Assembly: GCA_965232875.1 (NCBI GenBank) | Contig: OZ247431.1 | Coordinates: 1,110,273 to 1,174,272, forward strand | DNA: 64,000 nucleotides | Reading direction: 5' to 3' | From: Dehalococcoidia bacterium | Lineage (GTDB): Bacteria; Chloroflexota; Dehalococcoidia; Bin125 | Part shown: piece by piece, positions 5,170 through 53,850 of the stretch | Position numbering within the stretch: position 1 is the first letter of the stretch | Layout: each line of letters opens with the position of its first letter | The notes under the pieces: generated by a model | The model's database searches: none | What the model saw: the letters and a program-made list of their open reading frames with translations, nothing else | What the model was told of the DNA's origin: nothing | Translations under genes and position numbers: made by a program

Positions 5170-8100
5170 ATGCCGCCGAGTGGATCTGTGTCGCCCGTTT
5201 CCAAGCTGTTGATTGCCAATCGTGGCGAGATTGCGATTCGTGTGGCTCGTGCGGCCTCCGATCTGGGCATTGCCACCGTCTCCGTCTACTCCAAGGACGA
5301 CGCCAGGTCTCTGCACGTTCACGCCGCCGATGAAGCGGTCGAGCTCGATGCGCTGGGCGTCCAGGCATACCTCGACATTGACGGCCTGATTGCGGCCGCG
5401 CAATCGACCGGCTGCGACGCGGTGCATCCCGGTTACGGATTCCTGTCAGAGTCGGCAGAGTTTGCCCGACGCTGCCGAGATGCAAGCATCACCTTCGTCG
5501 GTCCGACAGCGCATCTGCTCGATCTGTTCGGGGACAAGGTCCGCGCCAGGCAGGCTGCGAGAGAAGCCGGCGTGCCGGTGATTGAAGGCTCCGACCAGGC
5601 AGTCACCCTGAGCGAAGCGGTTGACTTCTTCGAGTCGCTGGGCGAAGACGCGGCGGTGATGCTCAAGGCGGTAGCAGGCGGCGGCGGACGAGGCTCGCGG
5701 GCAGTCACCGACATCAACGAAATGGAGGCCGCCTGGGAGCGCTGCGAGTCCGAGGCGCGCATGTCGTTCGGCTCCGGCGCGCTGTACATCGAGCAGCTCA
5801 TTCCCCGCGCCCGACACATCGAAGTGCAGGTGATTGGAGACTTGCACGGCGGTGTCGGTCACCTGTGGGAGCGCGAGTGCTCGGTCCAGCGGCGATTCCA
5901 GAAGATCGTGGAGATCGCGCCGGCGCCACACCTGGAAACATCCACGCGCGAAGCCATCGTCGAGGCGGCCGTACGTATCGCACGCGACGTGGGCTACTCG
6001 TCTCTGGGCACGTTCGAGTTCCTGTTGGACGCCTCAGACGGCTCGAATGACGCCTTCTTCTTCCTCGAGGCGAACGCGCGACTACAGGTCGAGCACACCG
6101 TGACCGAACAGGTCACCGGCGTCGACCTGGTCCAGTCGCAACTGCGAGCTGCGCAAGGCGCATCAATCTCCGACCTCGGCCTCGACGATCCGTCCTGGCT
6201 GCGTCCACGTGGGTTCGCGATTCAGACCCGCGTCAACATGGAAACACTCACGCCCGACGGCTCGGTGCGTCCGGCGTCAGGCACGCTCAAGGCTTATGAG
6301 GCGCCCTCTGGGCCGGGTGTGCGCACCGACGGCTTCGGCTACGTCGGCTACCAGACATCTACTTCGTTCGACTCGCTGCTGGCGAAGGTGATCGCGCACG
6401 CTCCGGCGCCAAGATTCGAGGATGCGTTGACGCGCTCGTTGCGCGCGCTGTCCGAGTTCCGGATTGAAGGCGTCGCGACGAACATCCCGTTCCTCACCAA
6501 CGTGCTGGAGCATGCCGACCTCGTCGAAGGTCGTGTCCACACTCGCTGGGTCGACGAGCAGATGGCCGAGTTGGCGACGTTCAATGGCGCGCAGCGCGTG
6601 CGCTATCTGCAAGCGGAAGCACCGACGGCCGACAGCGGGTTCGCCGGCGCGCGCGTTGATTCGCGTGATCCATTGGCGCTCTTTCAGCACGATCAGGAAG
6701 TCAAGCAGCAGCAGTCCTTGCAGGTCGTCGAGGAAGAGGCGCCGGACTTGACCGGTCCGGAAGGCTCAATCGGTCTGCCCGCGCCGATCCAGGGCACGAT
6801 CGTTTCGATCATGGTCGAAGAGGGTCAGGAAGTGCGGAAGGGCCAGGACCTCGTCGCGATGGAAGCGATGAAGATGGAGCATGTGATCTCCGCCGACCGC
6901 GACGGGATCGTCAAGGCGTTGGGCTGCTCCATCGGCGATGTGATCCGTGAAGGCTTCCCACTCGTCTTCATCCTCGAGGCGGAAGTCTCGGTCGAGGCGA
7001 TCGGTGACGACGACCTGATCGACCCCGATTTCATCCGACCCGACCTACAGGAAAACTACGACCGACACGCCTACACGCTGGACGAAAATCGGCCCATCGC
7101 TGTGTCCAAACGTCGCGGACGCGGCTACCGCATGCCGCGCGAGAACATTGAACAACTCGTCGATCCGGGTTCATTCCAGGAATACTGGCCGCTGATCGTG
7201 GCGCGTCAGCACCAGCGCAATACCGACGAGCAACTGAGAGAGAACACACCTGCCGACGGTCTGCTCGCCGGTACGGCGACGATCAATGGCGACCTGTTTG
7301 ACGATGAGCGGGACGCCCGCGCGATTGTCGTGCATTACGACTACACGGTGCTCGCGGGCACGCAGGGCGGTCGCAATCACTACAAGCAGGACCGCATGTT
7401 TGAAATGGCGCGCCGCTTCAACTTCCCCATTGTCTTCTACACCGAGGGTGGGGGCGGAAGGCCCGGCGACGACCGGACCGGTCCCGGCGTGGCGTTCGAT
7501 ACCTACACGTTCACGCAGTTTTCGAAGCTCTCGGGCCAGGTGCCGCTGGTCGGTGTGACCAATGGTCGCTGTTTCGCCGGCAACACGGCGCTGCTTGCCT
7601 GCTGCGACGTGATCATCGCCACTGAAGGCTCAACCGTCGCGATGGGCGGTCCGGCAATGATCGAGGGCGGCGGCCTCGGCATCTATACGCCGGAAGAGGT
7701 CGGACCGATGTCGTTCCAGGTCCCGAATGGTGTGGTCGACATCCTCTGCAAGGATGAGGAAGAGGCGACCGATATCGCCAAGAAGTATCTGAGCTACTTC
7801 CAGGGACCGATCAAGGAATGGACCGCGCCCGATCAGCGCCGTCTGCGCCACATCGTGCCTGAGAACCGGTTGCGTCTCTACGACATGAAAGAGATCATCC
7901 ACACGATCGCCGATGAAGGCTCGGTGCTGGAGATTCGCGAGAAGTTCGGGATCGGGATCATCACTGCGTTCATCCGCGTCGAGGGACATGCGATCGGCGT
8001 GATCGCGAACAACCCGCATCACCTGGCCGGCGCGATCGACTCTGACGGCTCGGACAAGGGCGCGAGATTCCTGCAGCTCTGCGACGCGTTCGATATCCCC

Positions 8101-41671: not shown

Positions 41672-43022
41672 CTGCGTCCTCTGGAGGTTCCGTCGATTCC
41701 ACGATCGCCGTCAGACCCTCCATCCCGACCACTTTGATCGATGCCCCTTCGCCGATCTCCACACCGCCGGCAGACCGCGCCGACCACAACTCCGCTTCCA
41801 CCATCACTGTGCCTCCGGGAGCCAGCGCAATGTGGGCCACGCCCTCTTTGCCGACGATGCCCTGAGACGCCTGGAACGACCATTTCGGTCTGCGCCGATC
41901 GACCGCGACCAATGTGCCTAGCCCAAACACGACCACACCGACCAATCCTGCGCCTACAATCAGCGCCCAGATCGACACCTTCTCCGCGTCTACCGACGCA
42001 TCTCCGATCAGTAACAATCCGCCCAGGATCATTGCAATGATCCCGCCAATGCCCAGGAACCCGAATCCGGCGACAAACACTTCTGCAATCAACAGCACCA
42101 GGGCCAACACGAGCAATGCAATCCCCGCAGGATTCGTGTCCAACGGGCCCAACGCGAAGAAGCCGAAGATCAGCATGATCACGCCGAACACGCCCGGCCC
42201 GACCAATCCAGGCGAAAACGCCTCGACCAACAGCAACAGGCTGCCAATCGACGTGAAGATGAAGGCGATGTTCGGGTCGGCGATCACATCAAGGATCGAC
42301 TCGGCCAGGTTGTAGTTGGTCTCTACGATCGGGGCGCCCGCGAGATCCAGCGTGATCGTCTCCCCATCCGGATCGAGCAGAATCTCGCGCCCGTCGATCA
42401 GGTCGATCAGATCATTCAGGTCGTCGGCGGTCAGGTCGACGACATTCAGTTCCACAGCTTCCTCGCCGGTGATCGAAACGGATTCCCGAACCGCCTCCTC
42501 AGCCCACTCCTCGTTGCGCCCACGGTGCTTCGCAATGCCTCTGATGTCTGCAGCAGCGTCATTGGTCACTTTCTCGCGCAGGTCACCGTCAATGTCGCCC
42601 CCGCTTCCGGAGATCGGATGGGCCGCACCGATTTGAGTGTTCGGCGCCATCGCCGCGATGTGCGCCGCCATCGTGATGAACGTCCCCGCCGACGCTGCCC
42701 GCGCGCCGGCCGGACTGACGAAGATGATCACGGGAATTTCGGCAGCCAGGATCCGTTGGACAATGTCGTCGGTCGACGAAATCAATCCGCCCGGCGTGTC
42801 CATCATCAGGATCCAGGCCGCAGCATCCTCACGTTCAGCGCGATCAAGCGCGCGGGTGACGAAGTTGGCCGACACTGGCCCGATTTCCTGCGCCATGCTT
42901 GAGACGTGGACCGCGCCGGGCGGATGGTCCGAACCGCAGCCCGAGAGCAACGCAGAGCCCAAGCCGAGGCCCAGCAGGACCAGAGCCAGCGCTCGCATTG
43001 GACGGTGAAGCAACCACCTCAT
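41664..43022 (-). CDS. NfeD-family membrane-bound ClpP-class serine protease
   Basis: N-terminal lipoprotein-like signal, ClpP-fold region (GGLISSTDDIV...ASAGTFITMAAH), C-terminal multi-TM plus OB domain. Confidence 0.8.
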   Translation of the reverse strand: MRWLLHRPMRALALVLLGLGLGSALLSGCGSDHPPGAVHVSSMAQEIGPVSANFVTRALDRAEREDAAAWILMMDTPGGLISSTDDIVQRILAAEIPVIIFVSPAGARAASAGTFITMAAHIAAMAPNTQIGAAHPISGSGGDIDGDLREKVTNDAAADIRGIAKHRGRNEEWAEEAVRESVSITGEEAVELNVVDLTADDLNDLIDLIDGREILLDPDGETITLDLAGAPIVETNYNLAESILDVIADPNIAFIFTSIGSLLLLVEAFSPGLVGPGVFGVIMLIFGFFALGPLDTNPAGIALLVLALVLLIAEVFVAGFGFLGIGGIIAMILGGLLLIGDASVDAEKVSIWALIVGAGLVGVVVFGLGTLVAVDRRRPKWSFQASQGIVGKEGVAHIALAPGGTVMVEAELWSARSAGGVEIGEGASIKVVGMEGLTAIVESTEPPEDADE

Positions 43023-43057
43023 ACGTCAAGAATACGCAGTCGCGATAAACTCCGGTC

Positions 43058-43822
43058 ATGCCTCCACTGGTCACCCACATGATTGCCGCCGTCCGCGCGG
43101 GTGGACAGATCGGCGCGGAAGACCCAGCACTCGATTTCAAGAACGGCGACTACCTGCTCGGCGCAACGACGCCCGATATCCGCGTGCTCACCCGTTGGGA
43201 TCGCGAGCGCACCCACTTCTTCGACATTTACGACGACGGCCACCAGGACTGTGTCGAGAAATTCTTCGACGCCCACCGCACGTTTCGGGACCCGTCCAAC
43301 TTGTCTGCGCAGACCCGCGCTTGGGTAGCCGGATACCTCACGCACGTGATCATGGACCAGGAATACGTCCTAAAGATCTACCGACCATTCTTCGGCAGCC
43401 GATCCGTGCTCGGAGGCAGTTCACACGCCAACCTGCTCGACCGCGTCCTGCAATACGAAATGGATCGCCGCGAGCGGGAATCGGGCGATCAAATGCACCA
43501 AATCAGGCAGTCACTGTTTGGCTCGGCCGTCGAGATTGACGCCGGCTTCGTCGACCGTCCCTTGCTCACGAAATGGCGAGACACCACCGCAGCCATGACC
43601 GAGCACCCGCCCGACTGGGAACGGTTCTCATTCATCGCCTCACGGCACTTGAAGAGCGCCGGGATTGAAAGCGAGTCCGGACTACGGGACTTCATGGACA
43701 ACATCCCACAACTGCTCGACGACACCATGTCACACGTCGATCAACGCGCCCTCGACGGCTTCTTCGAATCAACGGCGGAACTTACGGCAAGCGTTCTCCG
43801 CGACTGGCTGGGCACAGACTGA
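43058..43822 (+). CDS. Hypothetical protein, possibly a metal-dependent hydrolase (zinc phospholipase C-like fold)
   Basis: 254-aa ORF with N-terminal VTHMIAA and several His/Asp. Assignment tentative. Confidence 0.45.
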   Translation: MPPLVTHMIAAVRAGGQIGAEDPALDFKNGDYLLGATTPDIRVLTRWDRERTHFFDIYDDGHQDCVEKFFDAHRTFRDPSNLSAQTRAWVAGYLTHVIMDQEYVLKIYRPFFGSRSVLGGSSHANLLDRVLQYEMDRRERESGDQMHQIRQSLFGSAVEIDAGFVDRPLLTKWRDTTAAMTEHPPDWERFSFIASRHLKSAGIESESGLRDFMDNIPQLLDDTMSHVDQRALDGFFESTAELTASVLRDWLGTD

Positions 43823-45192
43823 TGGTCAGCGCCACCGACAAGGTTGAAACGCAAATCCCGATCTGGCGAGGCGCAGCGGAAGCGCGTGAGCAGTTGCTCT
43901 CACGCAGACGTCCCGATGACGACGAACTGAGCGATGTCGAGCGAACCATTCTGCGTCGCCTCTTCGACGACGAGCCGGAGTTCGAGGAAGCTGTGCGCCG
44001 GATCATCGAGGGCGTCCGAACCGGAGGCGATGAAGCCGTCCGTCAAATCGCCGAAGCGATTGACGGCGCCGCGCCGGATTCGATCGTCGTCACGGAGGAA
44101 GAGTTTGCCCAGGCTCGCCGCGAGGTCTCGCCTGAGTTGGTCTCAGCGCTCCAGCACGCCGCCGAGCGTGTTCGCCGATACCACGAAATGCAACTCGAGC
44201 ACGCGGCCAGGTCCTTCTCCAGCGACGGTCTCGGCCAGGTCGTGCGGCCGCTCGCGCGCGTCGGGCTCTACGTGCCGGGCACAGCCGCTGTGTATCCGTC
44301 AACGGTGCTGCACACCGCCATTCCAGCCCAGGTTGCAGGAGTGCCCGAAGTCGTCATCGCCTCGCCGGCCGTGCCGGCCCAAGACGGTACCGCTACTGTC
44401 AACGCGCTCAAGCTCGTCGCTGCAGAAATCGCCGGCGTCGACACGGTCTACAAAGTCGGTGGCGCGCAGGCCATCGCGGCGCTGGCCTACGGCACTGAGT
44501 CAATCGGCGCAGTCGACAAAATCTTCGGACCGGGCAACCGTTTCGTCACAGCGGCCAAGCGACGCCTCTACGGAGTCGTCGGCATCGACGCAATCTACGG
44601 TCCCACCGAAACCCTGATCGTCGCCGACGACACGGCTAACCCAGAACTCGTCGCAGCCGACCTCCTCGCCCAGGCTGAGCACGACAATCTCGCCGCGCCG
44701 ATTCTGATCGCGACCAGTGAATCGTTCGCCGAGTCCGTCGTCGCGCAACTGATTGAACAGACCATCGACCTGCCCCGCCGCGAGATCGCCCTCAACGCTG
44801 TCCGCAATCGAGGTGGGCTCGCCTTCGTTCCCGACCTCGAAGAAGCGCTGGCCATTGCCAACGAGTACGCACCCGAGCATCTCGCGCTCGTCGTCAAGGA
44901 TGCCCACCAACGCATCGGCGATGTGCGAAACGCTGGCGGTTTGTTCGTCGGCGAAGCCTCGCCCGAGGCGCTGGGCGACTATGTCGCCGGACCCTCGCAC
45001 GTCATGCCCACCGGTGGCTCGGCACGATTCGCCTCGGCGCTGAATGTCGGCGAGTTCATGAAGATCACAACGGTTGTCCAGGTCACTGACGACCTGCTCG
45101 ACGAAATCGCCGGCGACGCGGAACTGATCGCCCACGCCGAGCACCTCGATGCCCACGCCCGCTCACTCGAACGGCGACGCCGAGACCGATGA
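43822..45192 (+). CDS. hisD: Histidinol dehydrogenase
   Basis: IDAIYGPTETLIVADD...AQAEHD signature. Confidence 0.9.
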   Translation: MVSATDKVETQIPIWRGAAEAREQLLSRRRPDDDELSDVERTILRRLFDDEPEFEEAVRRIIEGVRTGGDEAVRQIAEAIDGAAPDSIVVTEEEFAQARREVSPELVSALQHAAERVRRYHEMQLEHAARSFSSDGLGQVVRPLARVGLYVPGTAAVYPSTVLHTAIPAQVAGVPEVVIASPAVPAQDGTATVNALKLVAAEIAGVDTVYKVGGAQAIAALAYGTESIGAVDKIFGPGNRFVTAAKRRLYGVVGIDAIYGPTETLIVADDTANPELVAADLLAQAEHDNLAAPILIATSESFAESVVAQLIEQTIDLPRREIALNAVRNRGGLAFVPDLEEALAIANEYAPEHLALVVKDAHQRIGDVRNAGGLFVGEASPEALGDYVAGPSHVMPTGGSARFASALNVGEFMKITTVVQVTDDLLDEIAGDAELIAHAEHLDAHARSLERRRRDR

Positions 45193-46304
45193 GTTCCACA
45201 CCACCATCGATTCGTCCGCATCTCGCCCAACTGCCTGGCTACGCGCCGGTTGTCCCGCTCGCCGAACGCGCACGCCAGGCCGGTCTCGAACCCGAGGACT
45301 GTCTCAAGCTCGACGCCAACGAGAATCCCTACGGGATGCATCCAAGAGTCCGCGAAGCGCTGGCCACAGCGTTGTCCGACCCCAACTTCGGCTCCATCTA
45401 TCCCGATCCCAACCAGGCGACGCTCAGAGCGGCGCTGGCCCGATACACCGGCATCGACGCTTCGATGATCGTCGCCGGCGCCGGCGCCGACGAGCTGTTG
45501 GATCTCACCTTGCGAGCATTGCTGAGCCCCGGCGCTTCAATCATTACTTGCTCACCCTCGTTCGGGATGTATCCCTTTCTCGCCGATCTGAACGAACTCA
45601 ACCTCATCGACATCCCTCGAGACCACGACTTCGCGCTTCCAACCGACGAGCTGTTGGATGCGGTCCGCCAGAGCAAAGGCGATTCCGTCGTCGTTCTCAC
45701 GTCGCCCAATAATCCCAGCGGCGATCTAGTCCCAGTAGAGGTGATCCGAGCACTCCTGACTTCGGGCGCAACGCTGATGTTGGACGAGGCGTACATCGAA
45801 TTCGCCGGGCTCGAGATGTCGGCGCAATACCTGCTCTCCGAGTTCCCGCGCCTGATCATCATGCGCACCTTCAGCAAATGGGCCGGGATCGCCGGTTTGC
45901 GGCTCGGTTATGCGCTGGCCCATCCCGAACTCATTGCCAACCTGATCAAGGTCAAGCAGCCGTACAACCTCAATCAGGCGGCGGAAGTCGCCGGCATCGC
46001 AGCGATCGATGCGGCGGAAGAAATCGGCGAGCAGATCGACGCCATCCGCCAGACCCGTGATTCCCTGTACGAAACACTTCAGAGCAACGAGAGCCTAAAG
46101 CCACTGCCCTCGCAATCCAACTTCATCCTGATCGAAGTCGATCCGGCGATCGGAACCGGACGAGAGCTGCACGATCAACTGGCCAATCTCGGAGTCTTCA
46201 CGAGAACCTACAGCGATCCGGCTCTCGCCTCCTACCTGCGAATCTCGATGCCAAGACACGATCAGTTGAACACGCTGATTGAGCGTCTCAACAGCTTGGT
46301 CTGA
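45189..46304 (+). CDS. hisC: Histidinol-phosphate aminotransferase
   Basis: LDANENPYG N-terminal motif; class II aminotransferase; 371 aa. Confidence 0.9.
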   Translation: MSSTPPSIRPHLAQLPGYAPVVPLAERARQAGLEPEDCLKLDANENPYGMHPRVREALATALSDPNFGSIYPDPNQATLRAALARYTGIDASMIVAGAGADELLDLTLRALLSPGASIITCSPSFGMYPFLADLNELNLIDIPRDHDFALPTDELLDAVRQSKGDSVVVLTSPNNPSGDLVPVEVIRALLTSGATLMLDEAYIEFAGLEMSAQYLLSEFPRLIIMRTFSKWAGIAGLRLGYALAHPELIANLIKVKQPYNLNQAAEVAGIAAIDAAEEIGEQIDAIRQTRDSLYETLQSNESLKPLPSQSNFILIEVDPAIGTGRELHDQLANLGVFTRTYSDPALASYLRISMPRHDQLNTLIERLNSLV

Positions 46305-46344
46305 CGCTCTATCCTGCGCACGCTCAATCTTGACTTGAGCAGCG

Positions 46345-46920
46345 ATGCAGGAGGATGCGATGCGGCTCTCGGAACCACGATTACCACCACTGACGATTGA
46401 GACGGCGGAAGGCGAGTCCAAGGCGCAACTGGAGCGCGCCGAGGCTCGCGGCGGACGGGTGCTCAATATCACCCGCACCCTGGCGCACTATCCCGAGCTC
46501 TCCTCCGCCTGGGGTCGCTTCGCCCGACACGTCTTGGCCGGATCGTCGCTGCCCGAGCGCGAACGCGAACTGATCATCCTGCGCATGGGCTGGAACTGTC
46601 AGTCCGGCTACGAGTTTGGCCAGCATCGGCGCATGGGCCAGGAAGCCGGACTCAGCCTCGACGAAGTTGAGCGGGTCAAGGAGGGACCCGGGCACGACGC
46701 CTGGACCTCGCACGAAGCTGCTCTGCTGCAGGCCGCCGACGAATTGCATTCTGACGCGTTCGTCAGCGACGCAACCTGGAACAAACTGGCCGAGCGCTAC
46801 AACACCCATCAGATGATGGATGTGGTCTTCGCCGCCGGACAGTACAACCTCGTCTCGATGGCGCTGAACACACTCGGCGTGCAACTCGAACCGGGCACGC
46901 CCGGCCTCGAACTCGACTAG
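46345..46920 (+). CDS. Carboxymuconolactone decarboxylase (AhpD-like) family protein
   Basis: CMD-family similarity. Confidence 0.75.
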   Translation: MQEDAMRLSEPRLPPLTIETAEGESKAQLERAEARGGRVLNITRTLAHYPELSSAWGRFARHVLAGSSLPERERELIILRMGWNCQSGYEFGQHRRMGQEAGLSLDEVERVKEGPGHDAWTSHEAALLQAADELHSDAFVSDATWNKLAERYNTHQMMDVVFAAGQYNLVSMALNTLGVQLEPGTPGLELD

Positions 46921-46937
46921 ACGAGTCAGGAGCCACC

Positions 46938-48149
46938 ATGCCCGGTCCGCTTGACGGCTTACGAGTGCTCGATTTCACCTGGGCTCTGGCCGGTCCCTAC
47001 GGTTCGATGATCCTCACCGACCTCGGCGCCGAGGTCTACAAGGTCGAACATGTCGACACCAACGAGCGCCATCGCGGCGCCGGACCGTATGTACACGGCG
47101 TCTCGACTTACTTCTTCAGCGTCAATCGGGGCAAGAAGTCGGTCACGCTCGACCTCAAGCATCCTGAGGCAGTGCAGATCATCAAAGATCTGATCGACCC
47201 TGCATCCGGTGGCATCAATGTTCTGACCGAAAACTTCCGACCAGGCGCGATGGAGCGCCTCGGCCTCGGCTACGACGAGCTCTCTGCCATCAATCCGGGT
47301 CTGATCTACGCATCAACCTCAGGCTTCGGACACACCGGGCCCTACCAGCACCGACCCGCCGTAGATGTGATCGTGCAGGGCATGGGCGGTGTGATGAGCA
47401 TCACCGGACACCCGGACGGACCGCCCGCGCGACCTGGCTACAGCATCGGCGACATGGCCGGCGGGATGTATACGGCAATCGGAGTGCTGGCTGCCTTGCA
47501 CGAGCGACATTCGTCTGGTCTGGGACAGCACGTCGACGTCGCCATGCTCGACGCGCAAGTCGCGCTGCTCGAAAATGCTGTCGTCCGCGCCGCCAACACC
47601 GACGAGGTGCCCGGTCCAATCGGCACCCGGCACCCGCTGGTCACGCCGTTCCAGGCGCTGCCGACCGCCGACGGCTGGATGGTGATCGCCGGCGTCAAGG
47701 ACTGGCAGCTCTTCTGTGTCAAGATCGAGCGCGACGACCTGCTTCACGACGAACGCTTTCAGACCAATCCCGACCGCACCGAGCATCACGCCGACCTCGA
47801 ACCGATCCTGTTTGAGGCCTTCAAGAAGCGAACTACTGCTGAGTGGGAGGCCGAACTCGAAGGCGTCTGCATCGCCGCCCCGATGAATACGATCCCGGAG
47901 ATCATCAACGATCCACACATCGCCGCCCGAGGCATGATCGCCGACCTCCCTGTCGCCAAGTCTCAGAAATCAATCAAAGTCTCCGGTTCCCCCGTCCACC
48001 TCTCCCGAACCCCTATCCAACTCCGTCGAGGAGCCAGCGCCATCGGCGAGCACACCAGAGAAGCCCTGGAACTAATCGGCCGCTCGCCCGAGCAGGTCAC
48101 CGAACTCGTCGAGTCCGGCGTGATCTCAGTCGACGAACCGACTACGTGA
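46938..48149 (+). CDS. Family-III CoA-transferase (CaiB/BaiF)
   Basis: LDGLRVLDFTWALAGPYGSMILTDLGAEVYKVE signature, 403 aa. Confidence 0.85.
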   Translation: MPGPLDGLRVLDFTWALAGPYGSMILTDLGAEVYKVEHVDTNERHRGAGPYVHGVSTYFFSVNRGKKSVTLDLKHPEAVQIIKDLIDPASGGINVLTENFRPGAMERLGLGYDELSAINPGLIYASTSGFGHTGPYQHRPAVDVIVQGMGGVMSITGHPDGPPARPGYSIGDMAGGMYTAIGVLAALHERHSSGLGQHVDVAMLDAQVALLENAVVRAANTDEVPGPIGTRHPLVTPFQALPTADGWMVIAGVKDWQLFCVKIERDDLLHDERFQTNPDRTEHHADLEPILFEAFKKRTTAEWEAELEGVCIAAPMNTIPEIINDPHIAARGMIADLPVAKSQKSIKVSGSPVHLSRTPIQLRRGASAIGEHTREALELIGRSPEQVTELVESGVISVDEPTT

Positions 48150-48340
48150 GCCTGATCCGGAATTTGAACACCGCCTGCTTGCGCAGGCGGTCACCCCTCC
48201 CCGCTGCTCCTCGATTCACTCGGGGAACAGCGGGGCGGCAATGTTGCGGCGTGCTCTCGCACAAGTGAGACAAAATCGTCGATATGGCACTGAAGCCGAC
48301 ATGGCACTGAACCGGCGCCGAACGACGCCTGTTGCGTCCC

Positions 48341-48541
48341 TTACAGATTCGCGTTGTCGTAGACTTCCGCGTTCTGCTGGTTAGCAGAACTCTGCCACTG
48401 AGATCCTTGGCTGCCGCCGAGGAATTGTTGGCCCGCGTCACGCTGACCGCCGGCAACCTTGGCCAACTCGTCAGCGCTGAGCTCGTCGCCCTCGTTCTGA
48501 GCTTCGACCTGGTCCGCGGACGTATCTGTTTGTTCTGGCAT
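48341..48541 (-). CDS. Candidate double-glycine-leader peptide precursor (RiPP/bacteriocin-like), 66 aa
   Basis: MPEQTDTSADQVEAQNEGDELSADELAKVAGG | QRDAGQQFLGGSQGSQWQSSANQQNAEVYDNANL. LSADELAKVAGG fits LSxxELxxIxGG. SD-like GGGGTGA 5 nt upstream of the ATG. Confidence 0.45.
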   Translation of the reverse strand: MPEQTDTSADQVEAQNEGDELSADELAKVAGGQRDAGQQFLGGSQGSQWQSSANQQNAEVYDNANL

Positions 48542-48660
48542 ATGTCACCCCGTTTCTGCTTCTAAACTAGCAAATCAGAATCTCCTTCGCAATCGGCACT
48601 CGACGGCCCGCTTACCATTCTCAAGTGATCTCCTCCCCCGACCGCTCAAGGACCATTCCG

Positions 48661-49518
48661 ATGACCAATCGAGCCAGCTTCGCCGACCTCGTCCGCTCCG
48701 GAGAACCGATCCTTGCTCCCGTCGCCCTTGACCCGCTCTCTGCGCGGCTGGTCGAATCGCTCGGCTTTGAGGCGGCTTACCTCTCCGGCGGCGGCTTCGG
48801 CTTCCAACTCTCCGTCTCCGAGGCGCTGCTCACGATCACCGAGGTTGCCAACCTCACTCGACAGATCACCGCTCGCTCCGACGTCCCGCTGATCGTAGAC
48901 GGCGGCGTTGGCTTCGGCGACCCGCTGCACACCTGGCGCGCCGTACGCGAGATTGAGGCGGCGGGCGCGGCGGCGATTGAGATCGAGGACCAGGTCGCGC
49001 CCAAGCGTGCGCACCACCACAAGGGTGTCGAGCACCTGGTGCCGATGGAGATGATGGTCGACAAGGTGCGCGAAGCCGTCGACGCGCGCCGCGATGAGGA
49101 CTTCATCATCATTGCCCGCACCGGTGCAGTCCGGAATGAGTCCTTCGAGCGAGCGCTAGAACGCTGCGCCGCCTATCGAGAGGCAGGCGCCGATGTGCTG
49201 ATGCTGTTTACAAGCGATGAAGCTCAGATCGCCGAAGCAGGCAGGGTCTTGGGCGGACCGCTGTCGATGATGGCTCCCGCCGACCGGCTTGATCGTGAGT
49301 CTCTGGCGAGTCACGGCTTCAACGTTCTGATCGACCCCTTCACCGGCCAAGTTGCCGCCTTTGGCGCGATGCGCGACGCCTACCGAAACATCGCCGAGGT
49401 CGGAGCCTCAGGCCGAGAGGTCGATGACCTGATGTCACTGTATCGCGAAGTTCAGGACATGGCCGGAATGGATGATCTCTACGCGATCGAAGAGCGCACG
49501 ACAGAACGCCCCAGCTAG
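48661..49518 (+). CDS. Isocitrate lyase/PEP mutase superfamily enzyme of uncertain specificity
   Basis: YLSGGG, DGGVGFG, IEDQVAPKRAHHH. The K(K/R)CGH catalytic-Cys loop is replaced by KRAHH. Start at the ATG 48661 with AAGGA upstream; the track GTG 48625 is possibly over-extended. Confidence 0.8.
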   Translation: MTNRASFADLVRSGEPILAPVALDPLSARLVESLGFEAAYLSGGGFGFQLSVSEALLTITEVANLTRQITARSDVPLIVDGGVGFGDPLHTWRAVREIEAAGAAAIEIEDQVAPKRAHHHKGVEHLVPMEMMVDKVREAVDARRDEDFIIIARTGAVRNESFERALERCAAYREAGADVLMLFTSDEAQIAEAGRVLGGPLSMMAPADRLDRESLASHGFNVLIDPFTGQVAAFGAMRDAYRNIAEVGASGREVDDLMSLYREVQDMAGMDDLYAIEERTTERPS

Positions 49519-49554
49519 AGCGCCAGGCCCCGCTTCAACGAAACCCTCGCAATC

Positions 49555-49665
49555 GTCCCCATTCCGTCATTGCCGCGCTCCAACGCGGCAATCTCGCTGC
49601 ATCCGGTACCGACGTTTGTGCTCGAATCAGCGAGATACCCGCGACAAGCGCGGGTATGACGGAGT
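49555..49665. repeat. Two adjacent CCGTCAT-type hairpin units (CCGTCATTGCCGCGCTCCAACGCGGCAATCTCG and CGAGATACCCGCGACAAGCGCGGGTATGACGG) 3' of the PEPM-family gene
   Basis: Shares the GTGCTCGAATCAGCGA-TACCCGCGACA-GCGCGGGTATGACG block with 41242-41297. Confidence 0.6.
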
Positions 49666-49717
49666 TGCCCGCGCGCACTTGTCTCTTTCCGAAGGTCTCT
49701 TTCACGCCTAGTGCGGA

Positions 49718-50146
49718 TCAGTCAGTCGTCCAGTGGCGCAGGATTGCTTCGGTTTCCTCGACGTGCGTGGATTCGTCGCGGATGAAGTCTTCCAGCGTGA
49801 TCTTGAGTCCAATGTCGCCGTATTCCTCGGCTTGTCGAGAACGCGTGACGTAGCGGCTGGCTGCGTCACGTTCCATCTCCAGGACGCACTCGAGCATCGC
49901 GCGATTGCCCTTGGGCAACGGAATCTCCGCCGGAGTCGTCGTCGGTTCTCCGCCCAGCGTCACGATCTTGTTAGCCAGGTAGGCCGCGTGGATCTGCTCG
50001 CCGTTGACTTCCGATGAGAAAAACGTCGAAAGCTGGGGTCGATGCGGTCCGTCAACGCGAGCTGCGTATGTGATGTAGGTGATGATCGCCGCCAGCTCGG
50101 AAGCCAGGTCCTCGTTCAATAGTCCGATCAACGTGTCCCGATCCAT
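49718..50146 (-). CDS. Ferritin-like (bacterioferritin/Dps-superfamily) protein
   Basis: 142 aa. Four-helix-bundle pattern LNEDLASELAAI..Y...A....E..HA..L...I..LGG.P. AGGAGA RBS. Confidence 0.6.
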   Translation of the reverse strand: MDRDTLIGLLNEDLASELAAIITYITYAARVDGPHRPQLSTFFSSEVNGEQIHAAYLANKIVTLGGEPTTTPAEIPLPKGNRAMLECVLEMERDAASRYVTRSRQAEEYGDIGLKITLEDFIRDESTHVEETEAILRHWTTD

Positions 50147-50259
50147 CGCCGCCTCGTCTCCTGTGGCCTCGCGCTGACATTGATGATGAAGAGCGCATGA
50201 GCGTGGCGCAACCTACTCCGACACTGGACATCGCCGCGCGCGTGCGACAGAGTGGACGC

Positions 50260-50847
50260 ATGCGCAACGCGACCGTCACTCGTGAAACTGGCGAGACATC
50301 AATCACGGTCAAGCTGAACCTCGACGGCTCCGGCAACGCACACGTGTCCACCGGAGTCGGCATGCTCGACCACATGCTGCACCAACTGGCGCGCCACGGT
50401 GGATTCGATCTGACCGTACAAGCATCAGGCGACCTATACGTTGACGCGCACCACACCTCTGAGGATGTCGCCATATCAGTCGGTCGAGCGCTCAACGAAG
50501 CGCTCGGCGACCGGGTTGGAATCGCACGCTTCGCCGACCGCACGGTCCCGCTGGACGAAGCGCTGATTCACGTCGCGCTCGACCTGAGCGGCCGACCCTA
50601 CGCAGCAATCGATCTGCACTTCCCCGCGCCAATGATCGGCGAACTGCCGTCCTCAATGGCCAAGCACATCCTCGAGACCATCGCCTACGAAGGCCGCCTC
50701 GCGCTGCACGTCAGGCAACTGGCCGGTGAGAACGAGCATCACATCATCGAAGCAACGTTCAAGTCGCTAGCCCGCTGCCTGCGGGACGCAGTGCGAATCG
50801 TCGACGGATCAGGCGCTCCGAGCACCAAGGGCACACTCAGTTCGTAG
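50260..50847 (+). CDS. hisB: Imidazoleglycerol-phosphate dehydratase
   Basis: MRNATVTRETGETSI...DAHHTSEDV IGPD motifs. Start moved to the internal ATG by alignment logic. Confidence 0.9.
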   Translation: MRNATVTRETGETSITVKLNLDGSGNAHVSTGVGMLDHMLHQLARHGGFDLTVQASGDLYVDAHHTSEDVAISVGRALNEALGDRVGIARFADRTVPLDEALIHVALDLSGRPYAAIDLHFPAPMIGELPSSMAKHILETIAYEGRLALHVRQLAGENEHHIIEATFKSLARCLRDAVRIVDGSGAPSTKGTLSS

Positions 50848-50860
50848 CCAAACGCAGCCG

Positions 50861-50978
50861 GCCCTCACCCCAGCCCTCTCCCAGAGGGAGAGGGAGTAGA
50901 GTCGATGGTTCCCCTCCGGGTCCCCTCTCCCTTCGGGTCCCCTCTCCCTTTGGGAGAGGGTTAGGGTGAGGGGTCTCC
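50861..50978. terminator. Palindromic element between convergent hisB and purS: candidate bidirectional terminator / REP-like repeat
   Basis: Outer GCCCTCACCC ... GGGTGAGGGG. Inner CCCTCTCCCAGAGGGAGAGGG hairpin. Tandem GGGTCCCCTCTCCCTT x2. Overlaps the last codons of purS. Confidence 0.5.
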
Positions 50979-51224
50979 CTCGACGACACTGACCGAATAT
51001 TGCTCAATCACCGGATTTGCCAGCAACTGATCCGACATCTCCTTCGCCTGACGCTCAGCCTCGCTGGCCGACTCCGCCTCAATCCAGACCTCGATGAACT
51101 TGCCGGCGCGTACAGCCTCGACACTCTCGTAGCCGAGCGAGTGCAGGCCTCCGCGAATCGCCAGACCCTGGGGATCGTTGACTGTTCGTTTCAGCGTGAC
51201 GTGAATCTCGGCCTTGAACTGCAT
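50961..51224 (-). CDS. purS: Phosphoribosylformylglycinamidine synthase subunit PurS
   Basis: 87 aa, PurS family. Confidence 0.9.
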   Translation of the reverse strand: MQFKAEIHVTLKRTVNDPQGLAIRGGLHSLGYESVEAVRAGKFIEVWIEAESASEAERQAKEMSDQLLANPVIEQYSVSVVEGDPSP

Positions 51225-51229
51225 CTCAG

Positions 51230-52141
51230 CTAACCGGCCGTGATCAGTTCGCGGCCGGTCACACGCTCGAAGGCCGTGCGATAGCGCCCGCTGATGTTTT
51301 CGACCACGTCATCGGGCAGCGGCGGGCCGGGCGGTTCTTTGTCCCAGCCCGTCGACGTGAGCCAGTCACGCAGCGGCTGCTTGTCGTACGACGGCTGCGA
51401 CTGACCCGGCTTGTAAATCTCGGCATCCCAGAATCGGGAAGAATCGGGCGTCAGCGCCTCGTCGATCAGGATCACCTCGTCCTCGCCCTGCTCGTTCTGG
51501 ACGACGCCAAACTCGAACTTGGTGTCGGCGAGGAAGAATCCCGCCTCGTGCGCCCGTGACAGGCCGTAGGTGTAGAGCGCCATCGAACGGACCTTGACCG
51601 TGTTGGCGACGTCTTCGCCCACGATTCCCACTGCCTGCTCGTAGGTGATGTTTTCGTCGTGTTCGCCAATCTCGGCCTTGGTCGAGGGCGTGAAGATCGG
51701 ATTGGGCAGCGGCTCCGACTCCGTCAGGCCGGCCGGCAGCGGAATTCCGCAGACAGTGGAACTGCGCTGATACTCGGCCCAGCCCGAACCGGCCAGGTAG
51801 CCGCGCACGATCGCCTCAAGGTTGACCGGCTGCGCCTTCTTGACCAGCATCGAGCGACCGATATATTCCGGTCCAAGCGCAACCGGAATGTCGGGGTTGT
51901 CGGTCGAGTCAATCACGCGGATCATGTGGTTGGGCACCACAGATTCCGTCGCGTCAAACCAGAATGCCGACATCTGCGTCAACACGCAGCCCTTGTCGGG
52001 AATCGCCGTCGGCAGGACCACATCAAACGCCGAGACGCGATCGGTCGTGACCAGCAACAGCCGGTCGTTGAGGTCATAGATGTCCCGAACCTTGCCCGAG
52101 TGCTTGGGAAGGTCAAGGTTGGATTCGATCATCACACTCAT
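51230..52141 (-). CDS. purC: SAICAR synthetase
   Basis: Start MSVMIESN with GAGGAG RBS. PurC family similarity throughout. The track ORF 51230..53038 is a 5' over-extension through a Pro/Arg-rich frame. Confidence 0.9.
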   Translation of the reverse strand: MSVMIESNLDLPKHSGKVRDIYDLNDRLLLVTTDRVSAFDVVLPTAIPDKGCVLTQMSAFWFDATESVVPNHMIRVIDSTDNPDIPVALGPEYIGRSMLVKKAQPVNLEAIVRGYLAGSGWAEYQRSSTVCGIPLPAGLTESEPLPNPIFTPSTKAEIGEHDENITYEQAVGIVGEDVANTVKVRSMALYTYGLSRAHEAGFFLADTKFEFGVVQNEQGEDEVILIDEALTPDSSRFWDAEIYKPGQSQPSYDKQPLRDWLTSTGWDKEPPGPPLPDDVVENISGRYRTAFERVTGRELITAG

Positions 52142-52191
52142 CGCAAACTCCTCTGCGTTGAGCATATAGGTGAGACTGGTTCGAGCACTGT

Positions 52192-53850
52192 TCAATCTGG
52201 TCTCCAGCGGGCGTCTTGGCCTCTGGGTTTGGCGACGATCTGGAGGCGCCCGGTTGACCTGGTGGGTGTGGGGACTTGTTGGAGGAGTTCGTGCATGTAG
52301 CGGTCGGCGTCGAGGAGGTCGTCGTTCCGTTTGCGGGGTTTGGGATCGGGATCGTCGCCGGTTTGCCAGACGTACTCTTGCATGCGCTTGGGGAAACAGG
52401 TGAGGTTCTCGGTGTAGAACGATGCGGGCGGGTCGGCGGCGAGCGGTTCGTGGACGAGGTTGACGCCGTAGAGCACGGAGCCGGGGTTGCCGGCGGCGGG
52501 GACGACGTGGATGCCCTGTCGTCGTTGGTGGTCGATCCAGGCGGATTGGGAGCGGTCGGCGGCCCAGCGGATGGGACCGAACTTGCGCTGGCATTGACGC
52601 TGCCATTGTTCGAGTCGCTGGATGACGCCGGGGCCTCGGTCTTCGAACTCGGCGAGTCGGATCAGGGTGAAAGGGTGTTGGGAGGAGGTGGGAGGTGTGC
52701 TGCGGCTGGGGGACGGCTGGCGGGTGGTGTCGTTGATGGGCTTGGGCGGTTCGTGATTCCTGCCTGCGCAGGAATGACGGAGGGGGGAGACCCCCCCCCC
52801 TCTGCCTGCGGCATCTCCCCCCGCAAGGGGGGGAGAGAGGAATGGGGGGTGGGTGAGGCCTGCGATGATGCCGGCGGTGTGGTGGGCGGTGTCGGTTTGG
52901 CCGCCGAAGTCGAGGCCGCCGATGATGTGGGTGAACGGTGGGAGGGGGCCTGACCAGCAGTGGCGGTCGGGGTCGAAGTCGGGGTAGACGCGGCCCATGA
53001 GGGCGTTCCAGCGGCCGTCGATGAAGCGGTCGCGCCATTGTGGGGGCAGGAGGGCGTGGTTGAGCTGGGCGTAGTTGTCGGGCAGGTGGGGGTTGTCGGC
53101 GATTTTGGCGGGGATGAAGGCGACCTGTCCGCTGGCTTCGTGGAGGGCGTCTTCGGGTAGTTCACGGTGCAGGAACCAGCGCTGGAACCAGCCGGGCCAG
53201 GGGTTGGAGGCGGCGACGAACCAGCGCTGCGGCTGGGCCGGGTGGCGCAGGCGGGTGAGCAGCATCAGGGCGGCGTCCTCGTCGACCTGACCGGCTTCGT
53301 CGATCAGGACGGCGCCGTACTGCTGGGAGCCGAGGCCCTGCCAGTCGGAGAGGTGGCGGAAGTTGACGGTTGAGTGTTGGTCGCGGGGCCAGCCGGGTAG
53401 CCGCAGCTGGACGAGCGAGGTCGGGGCCTGCTGGCGTCGCTGGATCAGTTCGGGCGGGCAGACCTGGAAGAACTCTTTCATGGTGGTGGAGGAGAGGTCG
53501 GAGAGGTGGTGTCGGGCGACGAGGATGTTGTCGCCGGGGTGCATGAGCGCGGCGTCGATGGCGAGTTCGGCGATGGCGCGGGTTTTGCCCCCGCCCATGG
53601 CGCCGCCGTAACCGAGCAGGGTGAGGCCGGGATCCGGAGCATCGATCAGCGCTTCGTACAGCTCGTGCTGCCGCTCCGTCGGTCGAAAACTCCGACCTGC
53701 GCGCAAATCCGCCAGCCGCCTCAACGTTCGTCTCCGCATAGTCACTGCTCGCATCGCATCAGATCCTCTCTCGCCACGGCGAACGCCCGTCGCTTCGTTC
53801 AGATCAGCAACAGTACATATGAGCGGATACCCTTCGCCACTCCTCCTCAC
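52192..53850 (-). CDS. Phage terminase large subunit-like protein (ATPase plus RNase-H-like nuclease) with an in-frame repeat-element insertion
   Basis: Walker A GYGGAMGGGKT. Walker B AVLIDEAGQV. Nuclease motifs HIIGGLDFGG and RKRNDDLLDADRYMHE. Residues ~335-395 (PFLSPPLAGGDAAGRGGGVSPLRHSCAGRNHEPPKPINDTTRQPSPSRS) are encoded by repeat DNA at 52752-52850. Confidence 0.75.
   Translation of the reverse strand: MRRSGEGYPLICTVADLNEATGVRRGERGSDAMRAVTMRRRTLRRLADLRAGRSFRPTERQHELYEALIDAPDPGLTLLGYGGAMGGGKTRAIAELAIDAALMHPGDNILVARHHLSDLSSTTMKEFFQVCPPELIQRRQQAPTSLVQLRLPGWPRDQHSTVNFRHLSDWQGLGSQQYGAVLIDEAGQVDEDAALMLLTRLRHPAQPQRWFVAASNPWPGWFQRWFLHRELPEDALHEASGQVAFIPAKIADNPHLPDNYAQLNHALLPPQWRDRFIDGRWNALMGRVYPDFDPDRHCWSGPLPPFTHIIGGLDFGGQTDTAHHTAGIIAGLTHPPFLSPPLAGGDAAGRGGGVSPLRHSCAGRNHEPPKPINDTTRQPSPSRSTPPTSSQHPFTLIRLAEFEDRGPGVIQRLEQWQRQCQRKFGPIRWAADRSQSAWIDHQRRQGIHVVPAAGNPGSVLYGVNLVHEPLAADPPASFYTENLTCFPKRMQEYVWQTGDDPDPKPRKRNDDLLDADRYMHELLQQVPTPTRSTGRLQIVAKPRGQDARWRPD
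52752..52850. repeat. Chimeric repeat inside the terminase ORF: CGTGATTCCTGCCTGCGCAGGAATGACGG hairpin unit fused to the right half of the ~200-bp palindromic element (GCCTGCGGCATCTCCCCCCGCAAGGGGGGGAGAG); includes C10 and G7 homopolymers
   Basis: Direct comparison with 4868-5082 and 2184-2346. Confidence 0.7.

Follow-up and report, generated by a model that had tools for sequence, protein, structure and literature searches.

A putative orphan precursor peptide with a double-glycine leader on a small insert in a Dehalococcoidia genome

A 66-residue open reading frame (ORF) with an apparent double-glycine (GG) leader lies on the minus strand among the his genes of a Dehalococcoidia bacterium. 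The cleavage of GG leaders and the export of the released core are textbook mechanisms. No exporter gene accompanies this ORF. Three questions are treated here: is it a gene, what would export its product, and how did it come to stand here? A sequence-only reading of the window (the whole 64-kb stretch of DNA analyzed) had proposed an orphan precursor served by a transporter elsewhere. Our preferred reading, with a probability of about 0.68, is that the 66-mer would be recognized by the NHLP-type Peptidase_C39-ABC exporter (PCAT) of this clade, cut after Gly32, and exported as an unmodified 34-mer.

The precursor gene and its homologues

The ORF translates to MPEQTDTSADQVEAQNEGDELSADELAKVAGGQRDAGQQFLGGSQGSQWQSSANQQNAEVYDNANL. 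Its Shine-Dalgarno-like site (Table 1) reads GAGGTGA at the same place in L001, the only syntenic locus of a related species that also carries the peptide. ORF and site are present as first described, apart from a minor slip in the distance to the ATG, given as 5 nt and actually 3 nt. The leader motif segment, DELSADELAKVAGG, agrees with the GG-leader consensus LSxxELxxIxGG at −12 to −1 (LSADELAKVAGG). The pattern LSxxELxx[IVLMA]xGG has a single match in the six translated frames of the window. Its chance expectation was 0.0067 per window in 300 first-order Markov simulations, which reproduces an earlier estimate of 0.006. A looser GG pattern, with 0.29 matches expected by chance, gave one additional match in the window that was judged not credible. 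The leader is acidic. The predicted core has a pI of 4.05, a GRAVY of −1.24, a net charge of −2 and zero Cys, and its first description as Cys-free and neutral to acidic holds.

Table 1. Positions of the precursor gene, its parts and the adjoining features in the window
Feature	Position	Strand	Basis or remark
Family III CoA-transferase, upstream half of the split pair	46938..48149	+	CoA_transf_3, E = 8.8e-117
Lineage-specific insert, 511 bp, with the peptide gene	48150..48660	.	Between CoA-transferase stop and PEPM start
Two adjoining GC-rich hairpins, terminator-like, without U-tract	48170..48238 (48170-48191 and 48196-48238)	.	Inverted repeats I4, I1
Precursor peptide gene, 66 aa	48341..48541, stop codon included	-	ORF list and translation
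Predicted core, 34 aa, QRDAGQQFLGGSQGSQWQSSANQQNAEVYDNANL	48344..48445	-	Cys-free, acidic, 59% Q/N/S/T/G
Leader, 32 aa, MPEQTDTSADQVEAQNEGDELSADELAKVAGG, double glycine at end	48446..48541	-	Motif and homology
Shine-Dalgarno-like GGGGTGA	48545..48551	-	3 nt before ATG, spacer CAT
Sigma-70-like promoter candidate, weak, TTGCGA-17 nt-TAGTTT	48564..48592	-	By eye only
PEP-mutase/ICL-family gene (PEPM), downstream half of the split pair	48661..49518	+	PEP_mutase, E = 1.7e-40; start by homology

A scan of the peptide locus for consensus promoters and terminators returned no qualifying site. The promoter candidate in Table 1 has a counterpart in L001, TTGTCA-17-TAGTTT, also found by eye. The two hairpins sit between the convergent CoA-transferase and peptide genes, and both stems are kept in L001. 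The 3′ region folds with −88.8 kcal/mol (z = −3.5). An Rfam scan of 48000-48800 gave no match at E ≤ 1, so no known RNA element was recognized there.

Relatives of the peptide are very few. The recorded protein P0129 is identical to it. An indexed search of 5.8 billion proteins found a single relative, P0001, at 92% identity. An exhaustive HMMER search of 1.84 billion cluster representatives found P0003 (69 aa, 47% identity, E = 3.4e-5); P0002 and P0004 from the same search are long repetitive proteins and were taken as compositional matches. A later profile search found P0005, which is 43-45% identical to the window peptide. Among about 15 billion proteins, only four distinct sequences of the window-type subfamily turned up, and a JGI metagenome scan with the family alignment gave 600 pattern matches, 0 of them confirmed.

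The residues invariant in the window peptide, P0001 and P0003 are M1-P2, N16-E17, D19-E20-L21-S22, E25-L26-A27 and A30-G31-G32 in the leader, and A36-G37-Q38, Q55-Q56-N57, Y61 and N65 in the core. P0003 thus keeps MP, DELS.EELA..AGG and the core motifs, of which [WF]Q-x-[ST], QQN, Y and N-L are common to the window peptide, P0003 and P0005. Across 11 family members, E20, L21, S22, E25 and L26 are invariant and the GG (or AG) is kept.

These comparisons bear on whether the ORF is a gene at all. High-GC genomes yield many spurious ORFs and the peptide passes no curated family cut-off, and the GG motif could accordingly be a coincidence, in a small cytoplasmic protein or in an ORF that arose by chance in GC-rich DNA. 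Against this, the motif has the low chance expectation given above, homologous leaders stand beside PCATs in four genomes, and at 47% identity, with synonymous sites saturated, the frame, the length and the motifs are still conserved. Between the window ORF and that of P0003 (locus L057), pN is 0.42 and pS is 0.79, with synonymous sites saturated, and the flanking DNA of the two loci has no homology beyond the ORF. Between P0003 and P0005 (locus L059), dN/dS is 0.33. This protein-level constraint rules out a chance ORF, and we consider the coincidence reading as a whole highly improbable. The 66-aa ORF is, on comparative grounds, a real gene, and its leader is homologous to the leaders of relatives. 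The sequence-only reading had named as grounds against it the lack of homologues with a conserved GG position and the lack of purifying selection; homologues that conserve the GG position and the leader motif exist, and the frame is constrained at the protein level.

The P0003/P0005 ORF (L057 10001-10210 against L059 235-444) is 90-94% identical with 16 substitutions. It is the most diverged 200 nt within an otherwise 97-100% identical stretch of 1.9 kb, and the differences fall mostly in the N-terminal part of the leader. The divergence suggests that the precursor gene evolves faster or has undergone gene conversion. A 173-aa membrane-like ORF beside P0003 was considered as an immunity gene and rejected; it has 7 non-synonymous changes against 1 synonymous change and is without coding constraint.

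The window peptide falls below every curated cut-off in Pfam and NCBIfam, and all of its weak family matches cover the leader. The scores are 14.7 bits for the Pfam model Bacteriocin_IIc (E = 0.031, cut-off 27.1), 13.4 bits for L_biotic_typeA (cut-off 21.7) and 19.3 bits for the graspetide-type model TIGR04497 (E = 8.8e-4, cut-off 32, leader only). TIGR01847 is touched by P0005 only, with 14.5 bits against a cut-off of 15.7. The NHLP/Nif11 leader models TIGR03793 and TIGR03798 are not matched by the window peptide; P0005 matches TIGR03793 at positions 57-77 only, the cleavage end, with 13.3 bits against a cut-off of 50.9. Of the two kinds of leader model suggested earlier as a check, the window peptide has weak, sub-threshold matches to those for GG leaders and no match to those for NHLP/Nif11 leaders.

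Membership of the established classes was judged in the same way. A class II bacteriocin would be expected to have a cationic, amphiphilic or hydrophobic mature peptide and an adjacent immunity gene; the core here is acidic and very hydrophilic, and the insert holds no second gene. The leader is not of the long NHLP/Nif11 type (about 70-80 aa, with homology to nitrile hydratase alpha or Nif11). The peptide lacks the Cys of a lanthipeptide, and no LanB/C, LanM, LanKC or LanL was found among the genes examined nearby. No ATP-grasp gene, as for a graspetide, lies near the window gene or is conserved at the exporter clusters described below. By sequence, the window peptide belongs to a new precursor family that is very small, unannotated and of a known kind.

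The insert and its neighborhood

The order of genes is hisD, hisC, CMD-family, CoA-transferase, peptide, PEP-mutase/ICL (PEPM), ferritin-like and hisB. The first placement of the peptide among his genes was accurate, with hisD and hisC upstream and hisB downstream. The insert contains the opposite-strand peptide gene, 119 bp of upstream DNA, and a 190-bp tail with two strong hairpins. In 38 related species, the genes for CoA-transferase and PEPM are found together. In many relatives they abut or overlap (...CAATGACC; the TGA stop and ATG start share ATGA), and the pair is there, as judged from this arrangement, translationally coupled. The peptide was absent by tblastn from all of 38 syntenic loci except L001, and the insert is found only in the window and L001; a conserved synteny with the PEPM gene, which had been suggested for checking, is thus not observed.

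The start of the PEPM gene was placed by homology at the ATG at 48661, which makes the divergent spacer 119 bp. The spacer of about 120 bp described earlier therefore stands. The functional pairing of the two divergent genes does not, since their arrangement is an accident of recent insertion. The PEPM-family protein scores 180 bits against the prpB cut-off of 354. It reads KRAHHH where methylisocitrate lyases have KRCGH, and the first description of an enzyme without the catalytic Cys was correct.

The CMD-family, family III CoA-transferase and Cys-less PEPM/ICL genes (46345-49518) form a trio conserved between hisC and hisB across the clade. The best matches of the CoA-transferase are succinyl-CoA:mesaconate and succinate-glutarate transferases, far below their cut-offs. 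The CoA-transferase/PEPM junction (window 48147-48663) is a variable spot. In other relatives (loci L002-L039, around position 6000) it holds a secreted HExxH protein of about 530-920 aa. This protein evolves fast and is 25-39% identical between species, against 75-95% for the flanking genes. We considered the insert as a remnant of a gene for a secreted protein of about 850 aa at the same junction and found no similarity. Hallmarks of a mobile element were also looked for, and its ends show neither terminal inverted repeats nor a target-site duplication. No second copy of the insert was found in the window or in 60 loci.

The window and L001 differ at housekeeping genes with dS of 0.23-0.93, and at the peptide ORF with dS of 0.05. 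Sliding identity shows a tract of 90-100% at about 46900-49000 in a background of 75-88%. The low dS of the peptide and this tract place the insert in a recent homologous-recombination tract. From 43000 to 53000 the two sequences are mosaic, with tracts of 93-100% at about 46900-49000, 49500-49800 and 51200-51700 in a background of 70-88%, which implies frequent homologous recombination between the two lineages. Both the insertion and the surrounding mosaic of identity are directly observed.

Displaced by recombination, the gene could be a stray copy in decay, drifting and with expression and export lost. The insert is limited to two lineages, and the window holds no partner gene, no consensus promoter and no exporter. 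The ORF has 7 non-synonymous and 2 synonymous changes against L001, among them the change of the last residue from L to Q, giving a dN/dS of about 0.9. This ratio carries little information because the insert lies in a recent recombination tract, and nine substitutions are too few for measuring selection. The ORF is intact, and start, Shine-Dalgarno-like site, GG and length are the same in both lineages. The leader keeps all its motif positions; D24E affects one of the unconstrained x residues. Against L001, 4.5% of the sites in the ORF differ, compared with 8-9% in the non-coding flanks of the same insert. The orphan copy may be under relaxed constraint, and we regard outright decay as improbable.

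Several other features of the region were observed. L001 carries one more gene, of 274 aa, between hisC and the CMD gene. In the window, a lone ORF resembling a phage terminase large subunit (52192-53850, minus strand; Terminase_3, E = 1.4e-9) lies between purC and purB. L001 has an HNH and N6_N4 methyltransferase gene there, which makes this position a second variable spot. Intergenic DNA at 50837-51007 (minus strand) and about 52600-53000 translates to strings like PLPKGEG...GEGWGEG, and Pro/Arg-rich ORF extensions lie upstream of purC. The PLPKGEG-like DNA looks like a short dispersed repeat element.

Exporter clusters in related genomes

A tblastn search of the 64-kb window for a PCAT or a partner ABC exporter gave no match, in agreement with the initial statement that none is nearby. 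The window ends 15 kb beyond the peptide gene, and the genes within about 15 kb of it are housekeeping genes and one terminase-like ORF. In two relatives (OZ219805.1 and OZ244071.1) the coordinates place the exporter about 90-110 kb from the syntenic locus.

Homologues of the peptide are linked to exporter genes. P0003 lies in L057, a locus of the Chloroflexota MAG JAPPNI01 (RHO3_bin_68), 3.7 kb downstream of exporter genes on the same strand, with an IS element between. It is the only strict GG-motif ORF on the plus strand within 10 kb on either side. The PCAT of this locus scores 908 bits against the TIGR03796 cut-off of 853, and a second ABC exporter scores 733 bits against the TIGR03797 cut-off of 709.

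Homologues of the L057 PCAT are common in the clade, and three such loci were examined. L061 lies on OZ219805.1, the chromosome of the nearest species found (PEPM 95% identical), together with syntenic locus L002. L063 shares OZ244071.1 with syntenic locus L011, and L062 comes from a third genome. The same module recurs at all three loci: three or four tandem small precursors, an HlyD-like protein of 178-186 aa, the PCAT and the second ABC exporter. The C39 domains of the clade carry the canonical motifs QxxxxECG, NHFLVL and NDP, which contain the catalytic residues of the C39 family.

The clustered precursors have leaders of the form MP[EK]QTD...ELSAEEL..VSGG and short, Cys-free, polar cores. 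Three conserved types can be distinguished among them. In the a-type, the leader is MP[EK]QTDA..(K/E)(D/E)E(A/T)EE....VR...EELSAEELEDV(S/G)GG and the core SG.GKR.(A/S)(Y/F)(N/K).(A/S)QQ(P/S)WQ(A/S)T... The b-type reads MA[EK]QTD..PTKD.AE.....VDELSTEEL.QISAAG, followed by the core KAGSSASSH......GMGSSSNK., and the c-type ...RELS.EELDQVSGG, followed by GH...TATPGQNTAGSPPTPLGTGPANL. The window leader aligns end to end with the a-type leader (MPEQTD...DELSADELAKVAGG against MPEQTD...EELSAEELEDVSGG; BLASTP E = 7e-7 as a single comparison). The family HMM finds the peptide ORF in the window at E = 5.6e-26 and nothing else better than E = 1. BLAST gives no alignment between the window core and the cluster cores. 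They are alike in composition, and short motifs are shared, namely Q-x-W-Q-[SA]-[ST] by the window and a-type cores and a terminal A-N-L by the window and c-type cores. The proposal of an orphan GG-leader peptide with its transporter elsewhere is thus supported at the level of sequence: homologues and leader-homologous paralogues adjoin C39-ABC exporters.

The short HlyD-like protein, or mini-HlyD (170-186 aa), is encoded at L057 610-1122, L061 9399-9935, L062 9435-9995 and L063 5387-5935. That of L057 matches only the N-terminal membrane segment of the 421-residue model TIGR03794. Its length is conserved across species, and it is therefore not a truncation artefact. A further GG-leader ORF lies upstream of the mini-HlyD in L057 (158-481, minus strand), reading ...ELKPEELAEVSGG up to the GG and SRTAPPSGTAGQYVSSDTRVYDNPG... 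after it. It runs to about 100 aa and has the motif VYDN in common with the window core.

The flanks of the three clusters differ between genomes: L061 has a PPDK_N/Calx-beta giant, L062 an unrelated protein of 626 aa, and L063 a DEAD/MZB helicase. The giant (L061 3065-8308) has 1747 aa with PPDK_N ATP-binding and Calx-beta domains and lies directly upstream of the tandem precursors. It and the 582-aa and 698-aa proteins of L061 were considered as conserved maturases and rejected, as they are missing from the other two clusters. No maturase is conserved around the three clusters, so the conserved unit is precursors plus exporter.

The absence of a conserved maturase bears on a second use of the same exporter, in which the Q/S/N/T-rich core would belong to a RiPP precursor. 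An enzyme with a distant gene, perhaps representing a new class, would then modify the core before cleavage and export by the PCAT. Exporters of the NHLP type have a classical association with modified peptides (PMC3140520). Between species the cluster paralogues conserve their cores, and Ser, Thr, Asp and Glu residues could form cross-links. The ATP-grasp-target model TIGR04497 is weakly matched, and a PPDK_N domain of ATP-grasp type stands just upstream of the L061 precursors. The TIGR04497 match, however, covers the leader only, and the PPDK_N protein, like all other flanking genes of L061, does not recur in the other two clusters. Cys is absent from the core. The genes examined near the window gene include no LanM/LanB, YcaO, radical-SAM or ATP-grasp gene, as had been noted for the first four. 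We consider modification unlikely, if somewhat less so than decay of the copy, and the suggested new modification class finds no support at the clusters.

We return to unmodified export. The leader would be recognized by an NHLP-type C39-peptidase ABC exporter (TIGR03796) whose gene lies at another place on the chromosome and which would act together with TIGR03797 and a short HlyD-like protein. Cleavage after Gly32 would free the 34-aa core, polar, acidic and Cys-free, for export, most likely in unmodified form. The window gene would be a dispersed (orphan) member of a small precursor family whose members stand in tandem upstream of the exporter in relatives. This copy would have arrived as the 511-bp insert, splitting the formerly coupled CoA-transferase/PEPM pair, and is shared with one lineage in a recombination tract. 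The acidity and hydrophilicity of the core argue against a pore-forming bacteriocin and lean towards a signaling or interaction role, and the core may be a signal or interaction peptide.

A more far-reaching version is doubtful, and we offer it as speculation: that Cys-free Q/N/S-rich cores ([WF]Q-x-[ST], QQN...Y, VYDN) form, in sponge symbionts, a new functional class among the cargoes of PCATs and are not antimicrobials. Such cores could be substrates of an unlinked, undescribed modifying enzyme, unmodified signal or host-interaction peptides, or self-associating peptides. The NQQN..Y stretch presumably recalls Q/N-rich steric-zipper segments. Homologous recombination would carry new variants of them from population to population as small cassettes.

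Significance and comparison with known systems

The results extend the catalogued PCAT/NHLP-type export systems by an unannotated precursor family from an uncultured, sponge-associated clade of Dehalococcoidia. They give an example of how GG-precursor genes escape cluster-based genome mining, here as a single 0.5-kb cassette in a housekeeping operon, and of the transfer of a peptide cassette from one lineage to another within a recombination tract. The nature of the cores, hydrophilic and acidic, suggests that the exporters of this clade carry cargo other than classical bacteriocins. If so, this would bear on communication between symbionts or between symbiont and host. The orphan location of the precursor is a known phenomenon, and no new mechanism is involved. 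In the published case, GG precursors are linked to a transport cluster of three genes; many precursors are unclassified, and some are encoded far from the cluster (PMC3140520). The NHLP/Nif11 system with its transport cluster TIGR03794/TIGR03796/TIGR03797 goes back to Haft et al. 2010, as cited in PMC3140520.

The family shares with the GG-leader peptides of PCAT/AMS systems (class II bacteriocins, competence and quorum pheromones) the consensus LSxxELxxIxGG and an acidic leader, and homologues of the window peptide likewise adjoin a C39-ABC exporter with Cys, His and Asp motifs. It differs in its core, which is acidic, very hydrophilic, Q/N/S-rich and Cys-free instead of cationic or amphiphilic. 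There is no immunity gene or two-component sensor near the window gene, the Bacteriocin_IIc and TIGR01847 scores stay below their cut-offs, and the host is a Dehalococcoidia bacterium.

With the NHLP/Nif11 system it shares an exporter pair that passes TIGR03796 and TIGR03797 (in L057) and several diverse precursors per genome, some of them far from the transporter, like prochlorosin genes. In contrast to that system, the window leader has 32 aa and no nitrile hydratase or Nif11 homology, apart from the faint match of P0005 to the final 20 residues of TIGR03793. LanM and other maturases were not found, and the HlyD protein of the clade is a 'mini' form of 170-186 aa.

The unclassified cyanobacterial GG precursors and the CTB family bacteriocins (NF038167) are also short and stand in tandem arrays beside C39 ABC transporters. 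The leaders are weakly similar to NF038167 (E = 0.005-0.2, below the cut-off of 32 bits), and phylum and core composition differ. Many members are unannotated in both cases.
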